From assembly GCF_051903065.1 (NCBI RefSeq), contig NZ_CP178438.1: a stretch of 64,000 nucleotides of DNA; one strand, given 5' to 3'. The stretch is from Escherichia coli. Its GTDB lineage: Bacteria; Pseudomonadota; Gammaproteobacteria; Enterobacterales; Enterobacteriaceae. A model generated the notes under the pieces. It did not search any database and was not told the origin of the DNA. It saw only the letters and a program-made list of their open reading frames with translations. Of the stretch, positions 47,615 to 48,364 are shown piece by piece (position 1 is the stretch's first letter; each line of letters opens with the position of its first letter). Made by a program: the position numbers and the translations under genes.

Positions 47615-48364
47615 ATGAAGAGGTTGGCTTTCTATAATCTAAATTATGTTGTACTGATGGTTTTTTTTCTTTGTTTTTTGCCATTATCTATTGCAATTGC
47701 AATAGATAATGAGAATCTTTTTGTAAAAAAATACAGATTCGGTTTTGAACGAAGAAGTGACAATGGGAAACCAATTATTTATCTTAGCCATAATTTAGCG
47801 CCAGAGGAAAATATAAGTAATGAATTAACAAATGATGTTGTTGTTAAATTGGTGGTTAAGCCACATGCTGAAAATATTTTAGCTACTATAACTTTTTATA
47901 ACAGTAGTACTAAATCGTATTTTCTCCCCAGAATATATTATCCAAAGAACTTCCAAAAAGGAAATGGAGATGTATTTGATGCTTTGTGTGATGACGAATT
48001 CTTGATTACATCAGGAAATATTAGCTTAGACTATCTAGGAGGCTTTTGTCCCTTTGAGCTTGATTTGAATTTGAGCCGATGGGTGGAAATTACGGCAGGT
48101 AAAAAAATATCTTTTGATGTAAAATTGAATGATATGCATTCATTTCTCCCCAGTTTAAATAATTATCATATAAAAACATTAAACTACAAACTTGTTAGGA
48201 GAAAATGGTTTGTATTAAAATCAATTAATGAAACATTCCTCTCTATTTTGATGAAAAGATACTCATGTAATGAATATGATTTTAGAGCTATATCATTTAG
48301 TGGAGAGGGATGTGATAATTATGAATTTGATAAAAATACGTTTTTTTTGTTAATCAAATATTAG
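47615..48364 (+). CDS. Signal-peptide protein, candidate cognate immunity protein
   Basis: 249-aa ORF starting 1 nt after previous stop; N-terminal hydrophobic segment VVLMVFFLCFLPLSIAIA; very AT-rich. Confidence 0.55.
   Translation: MKRLAFYNLNYVVLMVFFLCFLPLSIAIAIDNENLFVKKYRFGFERRSDNGKPIIYLSHNLAPEENISNELTNDVVVKLVVKPHAENILATITFYNSSTKSYFLPRIYYPKNFQKGNGDVFDALCDDEFLITSGNISLDYLGGFCPFELDLNLSRWVEITAGKKISFDVKLNDMHSFLPSLNNYHIKTLNYKLVRRKWFVLKSINETFLSILMKRYSCNEYDFRAISFSGEGCDNYEFDKNTFFLLIKY

Follow-up and report, generated by a model that had tools for sequence, protein, structure and literature searches.

The window analysed here, a 64,000-nucleotide segment of an Escherichia coli chromosome (NZ_CP178438.1), carries the aspV-associated T6SS-1, in which tssC and tssB, encoded on the minus strand, are followed by a copy of IS903B, hcp, vgrG, an M35 metallopeptidase gene, the immunity gene that is the subject of this work, a vgrG remnant, tla1, tli1a and tle1. 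The 799-residue VgrG (44424-46823, + strand), delimited from its open reading frame and from the RefSeq annotation of near-identical genomes, is the presumed effector carrier and has a C-terminal extension (...PEKYTLQFHFTDDDGIPYSETQYIAFFEDG...) that recurs at the vgrG 3' ends upstream of other M35 effectors (loci L005, L016, L019 and L020). The M35, or aspzincin, effector gene (46810-47613, + strand; 267 amino acids) overlaps the vgrG stop by 14 nt. Further downstream lies the 3' remnant of a second vgrG (48570-48941, + strand), which is 79.5% identical in nucleotide sequence to the matching part of the full-length gene. It marks the junction between the vgrG-M35-immunity module and the ancestral tla1-tli1a-tle1 module, and looks like a recombination scar left by the swapping of effector modules at the conserved vgrG 3' region; the vgrG-effector-immunity module has thus been inserted by recombination upstream of the classical Tle1 genes. 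In this exact form the module is rare, being carried by 12 of 5426 complete E. coli genomes, and in the window its vgrG and effector genes, together with tssM, are all intact.

The IS903B copy (IS5-like; 42535-43503), inserted between the divergent tssB and hcp genes, sits in an AT-rich intergenic region expected to hold the promoters of the hcp-vgrG-effector operon, and the insertion could alter expression of the whole module. The window is 99.99% identical to strain 23CRST027, in which, however, the tssM and vgrG reading frames, intact here (24150-27760 and 44424-46823, compared with L034 and L001), are RefSeq pseudogenes (internal stop, frameshift); 23CRST027 also carries a downstream IS1 copy that is absent from the window. 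These differences may be real, or may stem from assembly errors in the public record.

The immunity candidate itself (47615-48364, + strand) is a 249-residue open reading frame whose ATG at position 47615 stands 1 nt beyond the TAA stop of the M35 gene (47611-47613), with a GGGGA Shine-Dalgarno-like motif approximately 8 nt 5' of the start codon. A promoter scan returned 7 sites against 9.5 expected and thus no enrichment, leaving a separate promoter for the immunity gene unsupported. The gene has a GC content of 0.288 compared with 0.508 for the entire window, and the six lowest-GC 750-nt windows of the 64 kb, which start between 47451 and 47701, overlap the immunity gene and the 3' end of the M35 gene. 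The encoded protein has no match in Pfam-A, even at E ≤ 10, and none in NCBIfam; PDB sequence and profile searches with the immunity family as query returned only weak, spurious hemocyanin matches, and the UniProt/AFDB homologues are named 'uncharacterized protein'. A preliminary description of the locus had reported a 249-residue frame beginning 1 nt after the stop of an HExxH gene, had called it the most AT-rich coding segment of the island and had seen no recognisable motif in it: the coordinates and the gap are confirmed, the composition agrees, and the absence of a motif holds for the curated libraries. What it overlooked is that the window allele is frameshifted at its C-terminus, residues 1-243 being native and followed by LLIKY and a stop. 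Within the codons of the signal-peptide cleavage region (LSIAIAIDN), the two 13-bp arms of a perfect inverted repeat enclose a loop of 4 nt (CATTATCTATTGC AATT GCAATAGATAATG; 47682-47711); the predicted RNA hairpin of -17.2 kcal/mol may have a function or may be a by-product of the IAIAI codons.

Judged from its sequence, the upstream gene encodes a genuine aspzincin. It is named 'M35 family metalloendopeptidase' in RefSeq and retains the catalytic residues H162-E163-xx-H166, D183 and E226, and its product has neither a signal peptide nor a prodomain. When searched against the PDB, a profile built from 11 effector homologues matches the catalytic part of the AsaP1 entry (2x3a; E 2.6e-7) and the Grifola peptidyl-Lys metalloendopeptidase (1g12; E 4.6e-5), with no VgrG2b chain recovered at E ≤ 10. 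Residue E226 aligns to Glu157 of GfMEP, which influences the P1' lysine specificity of that enzyme, an E157D mutant accepting Arg too (PMC11985622). Because the equivalent of Glu157 is retained, the effector may cleave before lysine in its periplasmic target, and such a putative Lys preference narrows the substrate search.

By inspection, the immunity protein begins with a predicted Sec signal peptide (codons 1-29, 47615-47701, + strand; MKRLAFYNLNYVVLMVFFLCFLPLSIAIA | IDNEN), in which MKR, VVLMVFFLCFLPLSIAIA and AIA|ID provide the n-, h- and c-regions and an AXA cleavage motif. The h-region is a hydrophobic stretch of about 20 residues, a length at which the segment could possibly serve as an uncleaved membrane anchor instead. 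Among the aligned N-termini of 13 other paired homologues, 12 have a hydrophobic segment, most of them ending in an AXA-like motif, and a signal-like N-terminus is found in nearly all full-length family members despite their sequence divergence; in the AlphaFold2 (AF2) model described below, residues 4-27 form a detached helix. The export signal put forward in the preliminary description is therefore borne out by this layout and by equivalent segments family-wide, as judged by inspection. A lipoprotein was also considered and rejected, as the N-terminus has no lipobox ([LVI][ASTVI][GAS]C) and the sole cysteine of the signal region stands in FFLC. In the remainder of the protein, Cys125, Cys145 and Cys218 are near-invariant across 54 family members and Cys233 is common to close relatives, a pattern that fits disulfide formation in the periplasm.

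A word-indexed protein search with the immunity protein recovered 4 homologous clusters only, and a full HMM search of 1.8 billion representatives detected 100 members of the family, of which 40 score below E 1e-30; clustered at 50%, the family has about 100 representatives. In the contexts of all four clusters, in Salmonella Moero and three metagenome contigs, the family member is directly preceded by an M35 gene (L002, L003 and L005) or by its remnants (two, both truncated, in L004), and the order recurs in L006 and L007. A diverged PAAR-vgrG-M35 island, the common B2 island, lies near yddH/nhoA in about 518 further E. coli genomes, and its downstream 'hypothetical protein' is 41% identical to the window immunity protein. 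Roughly 10% of complete E. coli genomes have a related effector island. The preliminary description had named conserved co-occurrence of the pair next to vgrG or PAAR genes as a test of its proposal, and besides the PAAR-vgrG-M35 arrangement of the B2 island the co-occurrence is seen from both sides of the pair. In an effector-side scan of one genome per GTDB species, a family member comes after the M35 gene at all seven loci (Citrobacter werkmanii, Citrobacter sp., Trabulsiella guamensis, T. odontotermitis, Buttiauxella izardii, B. agrestis and Rahnella rivi), and vgrG precedes the M35 gene wherever the contig extends far enough. From the immunity side, four of six diverse members are preceded by vgrG and an intact M35 gene, one (L015) has only an 88-residue M35 remnant, and one (L017) is an orphan inside another T6SS effector island, the sole exception, among the related loci examined, to an M35 gene or remnant directly upstream. 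The effector-immunity pairing holds at 25-60% identity and in several genera.

Retention of immunity genes where the toxin has decayed, as in L004, L015 and L017, is typical of such genes. L004, a contig of Logan accession DRR526040, shows an orphan-immunity-like array (253-6084) that starts with a 749-residue protein with M23-like motifs and a signal-peptide protein and continues with a 133-residue M35 fragment, an intact family member, a 102-residue M35 fragment and a diverged 319-residue family member. Minimal versions of the pair come from Buttiauxella agrestis (L013:4974-6197) and Trabulsiella odontotermitis (L014:5070-6203), with effectors of 154-186 residues and immunity proteins of 219-220 residues that lack the helical insert and keep the beta-sandwich and the final strand; these pairs should be useful for defining the inhibition core.

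The closest known relative of the window pair is found in E. coli PAR, whose M35-PAR protein AKO63_2955 is lethal to E. coli when directed to the periplasm from pET22b, a toxicity prevented by co-expression of AKO63_2956 (PMC10673891, Commun Biol 2023;6:1195). We found the corresponding locus in the metV T6SS-2 island, where vgrG is frameshifted, in agreement with the separate 'VgrG' and 'DUF2345' genes of that study (PMC10673891), and is followed by genes for proteins of 262 and 308 residues. The former (RS15260) matches the effector HMM at E 2.5e-47 and the latter (RS15265) the immunity HMM at E 1.3e-87, with 31% identity to the window immunity protein over 213 residues (E 3.4e-29). From the gene order, rather than from a locus-tag table, we infer that RS15260 and RS15265 correspond to AKO63_2955 and AKO63_2956, and given that mapping the immunity family has one experimentally validated member. 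The two pairs share both protein families and the vgrG-M35-immunity order; they differ in location (metV T6SS-2 versus the aspV T6SS-1 of the window) and are 27-31% identical. In the PAR study, the immunity gene was a side control, its family was left unnamed and a relationship to prodomains was not mentioned, and effector loading was attributed to the DUF2345 part of vgrG rather than to the downstream gene (PMC10673891). The PAR metV island (L033:20771-29430; NZ_CP012379.1 2965770-2974429) holds two tandem vgrG-M35-immunity modules, the second with the frameshifted vgrG, and the 'stand-alone DUF2345 gene' of PMC10673891 may be the 3' half of this broken vgrG.

A second point of comparison is the Tpe-Tpi family, represented by the VgrG2b C-terminal metallopeptidase and PA0261 in P. 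aeruginosa and by Tpe1/Tpi1 in A. baylyi (Wood et al. 2019, PMC6899460), where a T6SS-delivered HExxH metallopeptidase acts in the periplasm, as proposed for the window effector, and its immunity gene is located immediately downstream, as in the window. PA0261-type immunity proteins are exported, require their signal peptide, have partly conserved cysteines and depend on DsbA, and the C-terminal domain of VgrG2b resembles thermolysin, Glu983 being an additional zinc ligand (PMC6899460), in contrast to the Asp ligand of the window aspzincin. Membership of the effector in the VgrG2b/Tpe family was thus rejected, given the different third zinc ligand and an effector profile that finds only M35 structures. 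Similarly, enterobacterial PA0261 homologues are reported as lipoproteins, whereas the window protein lacks a lipobox. No PA0261 structure came up among the hits.

To obtain a structural view of the family, we modelled the restored 279-residue protein (see below) with AF2 from a 54-sequence alignment (pLDDT 84.5, pTM 0.76). The model comprises the detached N-terminal helix, a beta-sandwich, three helices and a C-terminal hairpin, the beta-sandwich core spanning approximately residues 75-194, upstream of the point at which the window allele is truncated. The modelled fold matches the propeptide domain of an M35 zymogen, which is where a match should lie, since the helical catalytic domain offers nothing on which an all-beta domain could superpose. 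At the profile level, a search with an 80-residue AsaP1 fragment as query returned short fragments only, and the pro-region profile was built from 50 secreted pre-pro-M35 proteases, a neighbouring gene in L028 having led to the full-length sequences. In hhalign comparisons, the immunity family aligns to the M35 pro-region over 81 columns with a probability of 79.4% (E 1.5e-5), a moderate rather than decisive score, versus 0.1% (E 0.61) for the M35 catalytic region, and the effector family shows the inverse preference (97.5%, E 6e-12, for the catalytic region; 0.06%, E 0.77, for the pro-region). As controls, 30 column shuffles of the comparison between immunity family and pro-region gave a maximum of 1.2%, and the reversed comparison gave 3.5% (E 0.012). 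We also modelled the pair as an immunity-(GGGGS)6-effector single-chain fusion in AF2 with a 14-row paired alignment; the model reached a pTM of 0.49 and aligned to 2x3a over 168 residues of one domain only, with no two-domain superposition on AsaP1, so that zymogen-like docking is unsupported by this modelling.

The fold and profile matches are read most economically if the immunity protein descends from an M35 prodomain and has become a free-standing protein exported by Sec, a kinship that the preliminary description had overlooked. In the AsaP1 M35 zymogen (PDB 2x3a; Bogdanovic et al. FEBS Lett 2016), the propeptide is reportedly inhibitory. There it is covalently attached at the N-terminus of its own protease and removed on activation, whereas the immunity protein is the product of a separate downstream gene, has its own signal peptide together with an extra helical segment and a C-terminal hairpin (196-271), and would act on a protease that a different cell has produced. 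Propeptide-like inhibitors that stand free, among them the B. subtilis intracellular proteinase inhibitor Ipi (PDB 3isy), Spi/SpeB and the MEROPS I9 and I29 inhibitors, are directed at other protease classes and act within the producer cell or outside it. We know of no propeptide-like protease inhibitor that serves as a T6SS immunity protein, and our literature search turned up no paper that connects such a protein with a protease prodomain, nor one linking aspzincins to T6SS. In AFDB, the immunity beta-sandwich is also matched, at E ~1e-8 to 1e-9, by uncharacterised proteins of about 165 residues from Massilia, Pseudoduganella, Spirosoma and others, one of them named 'Protease', and these may be further free-standing prodomain-like inhibitors outside Enterobacterales.

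The window reading frame ends at 48362-48364 as the result of a -1 frameshift in a run of eight T residues (T8; 48341-48348, + strand) that is T9 in A30, 33F4 and PapRG-04-4. In the T9 allele the frame extends to 48453 and encodes 279 residues with the conserved C-terminal tail restored; the out-of-frame remainder of this ancestral reading frame is still present in the window (48349-48453, + strand) and encodes the tail VNQILDKDDEQHSVHIRSNEFSINIDGSLVKQPY followed by a stop. Homologues and other E. coli alleles run past residue 243 with the conserved tail ...FFFVNQILDKDDEQHSVHIRSNEFSINIDGSLVKQPY, which in the window is found in the -1 frame. The frameshift deletes the last 36 conserved residues, and the tail motif (R)SN-x-V-x-I-x-I-(D/N)G is kept family-wide, even in the shortest members. 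In the AF2 model the lost segment comprises part of helix 240-256 and the hairpin 258-271 (pLDDT 86-96), and the family HMM matches the 249-residue window protein at E 4e-70 over HMM positions 6-253 only.

The two alleles are both common: in a large protein collection, the exact 249-residue product is found on 110 contigs and the exact 279-residue product on 93. Among the complete genomes inspected singly, A30, 33F4 and PapRG-04-4 have T9, and the window strain, 23CRST027, ECNB21-M121, FDAARGOS_943 and 2018-05-2CC have T8. A30 differs from the window by the extra T only, and FDAARGOS_943, a T8 strain, shares SNPs with the T9 strain PapRG-04-4; the T8 allele thus occurs on at least two SNP backgrounds and, therefore, the tract has probably slipped more than once. 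An earlier T8 run within the signal-peptide codons (47661-47668, + strand) is T7 in FDAARGOS_943 and 2018-05-2CC, resulting in a 5' frameshift. In 2018-05-2CC, moreover, IS600 is inserted in vgrG and the M35 gene is shortened. A comparable event is seen in the B2 island of NRG 857C (NC_017634.1; L006:7440-7640), where the immunity gene, annotated at 261 residues, is frameshifted at an A7 run adjoining the position equivalent to the window T8 run, with the conserved tail HFFINQLWAIEDEKNSIYVTPDEISISIDGDNLKLPY in another frame. Because the window allele lacks the conserved, modelled C-terminus and some carriers have a second frameshift in the signal peptide, the sequences suggest that in this lineage the immunity gene may be in decay and no longer functional.

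Taken to its conclusion, decay would make the window gene a non-functional remnant of a genuine immunity family, with an unstable or inactive T8 product and a module on its way to being lost, and we regard this as an even call for the allele at hand. The 36 lost residues include the strand of the (R)SN-x-V-x-I-x-I-(D/N)G motif, the signal-peptide frameshifts of FDAARGOS_943 and 2018-05-2CC and the IS600 and M35 lesions of the latter count in favour of decay, IS903B lies between tssB and hcp, and the NRG 857C homologue is broken next to the same site. Nevertheless, effector, vgrG and tssM are intact in the window, and an intact periplasmic toxin without immunity should be counter-selected if the system fires. 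Furthermore, T8 is as common as T9 and is found on more than one background, the truncation leaves the prodomain-like beta-sandwich core untouched, and a portion of full-length protein could arise if transcription or translation slips on the T run.

Other readings concern the role of the family rather than the state of the allele. The structural and profile kinship to a protease prodomain would also be compatible with a folding chaperone or activator of the effector acting in trans, as prodomains commonly assist folding, yet we consider this role very improbable: the immunity protein is equipped for export, and the effector, which lacks such a signal, leaves via the T6SS, so that the two would occupy different compartments in the producer cell; orphan copies also persist after the effector has decayed (L004, L015 and L017), as expected of immunity and not of a chaperone. 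Moreover, the PAR homologue abolished toxicity instead of enabling it (PMC10673891). Least credible of all is a role in loading the effector onto VgrG, as a T6SS adaptor or accessory factor, or no role in the module at all, the gene for a periplasmic protein having come to lie downstream by chance; the location within a vgrG-effector module and the lack of annotation could be invoked here. Known adaptors are cytoplasmic, as is the case for the DUF4123 protein Tla1 encoded a few genes downstream, whereas the candidate carries a signal peptide; loading in PAR was assigned to the DUF2345 part of vgrG (PMC10673891); and chance adjacency is ruled out by the recurrence of the M35 pairing across genera at such low identity.

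We favour, with a probability of roughly 80%, a periplasmic immunity protein for the upstream M35 effector, itself VgrG cargo, that would act as a prodomain-like inhibitor in trans and is present in the window as a frameshifted allele. The cognate-immunity proposal of the preliminary description is thereby upheld by synteny, by family-wide export signals and by the 31%-identical PAR homologue. In the corresponding mechanism, the immunity gene would be translated from a vgrG-effector-immunity transcript, for which the 1-nt spacing and the ribosome-binding site are visible in the sequence and co-transcription is presumed, and its product would be exported by the Sec pathway via a cleavable signal peptide, as its sequence and the conservation across the family suggest. 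It would then fold in the oxidising periplasm with the help of its conserved cysteines and bind the effector fired by sister cells, probably so as to block the active site; neutralisation as such has been observed experimentally for the 31%-identical homologue. The pair would thus resemble a zymogen split into two genes, with the protease mounted on the T6SS spike and the prodomain waiting in the periplasm.

More tentatively, at what we judge to be slightly short of even odds, the pair derives from the splitting of a secreted M35 zymogen, whose catalytic part gained a VgrG-loading N-terminus and whose prodomain became an exported inhibitor, and, in E. coli, hypermutable T tracts repeatedly switch the immunity gene between T9 and T8 states with the toxin remaining intact. 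New here are the proposed prodomain ancestry and the common frameshift polymorphism beside an intact toxin. A family whose members are all annotated as 'hypothetical protein' is given a function by this analysis, and a mechanism open to testing. If the prodomain origin is true, the family would provide a clear example of an immunity protein that evolved from the regulatory domain of the toxin itself, and it would also predict the inhibitory interface. Finally, a common T8/T9 polymorphism beside an intact toxin poses a concrete question for natural E. coli populations, be it one of self-intoxication, of kin discrimination or of expression based on slippage.
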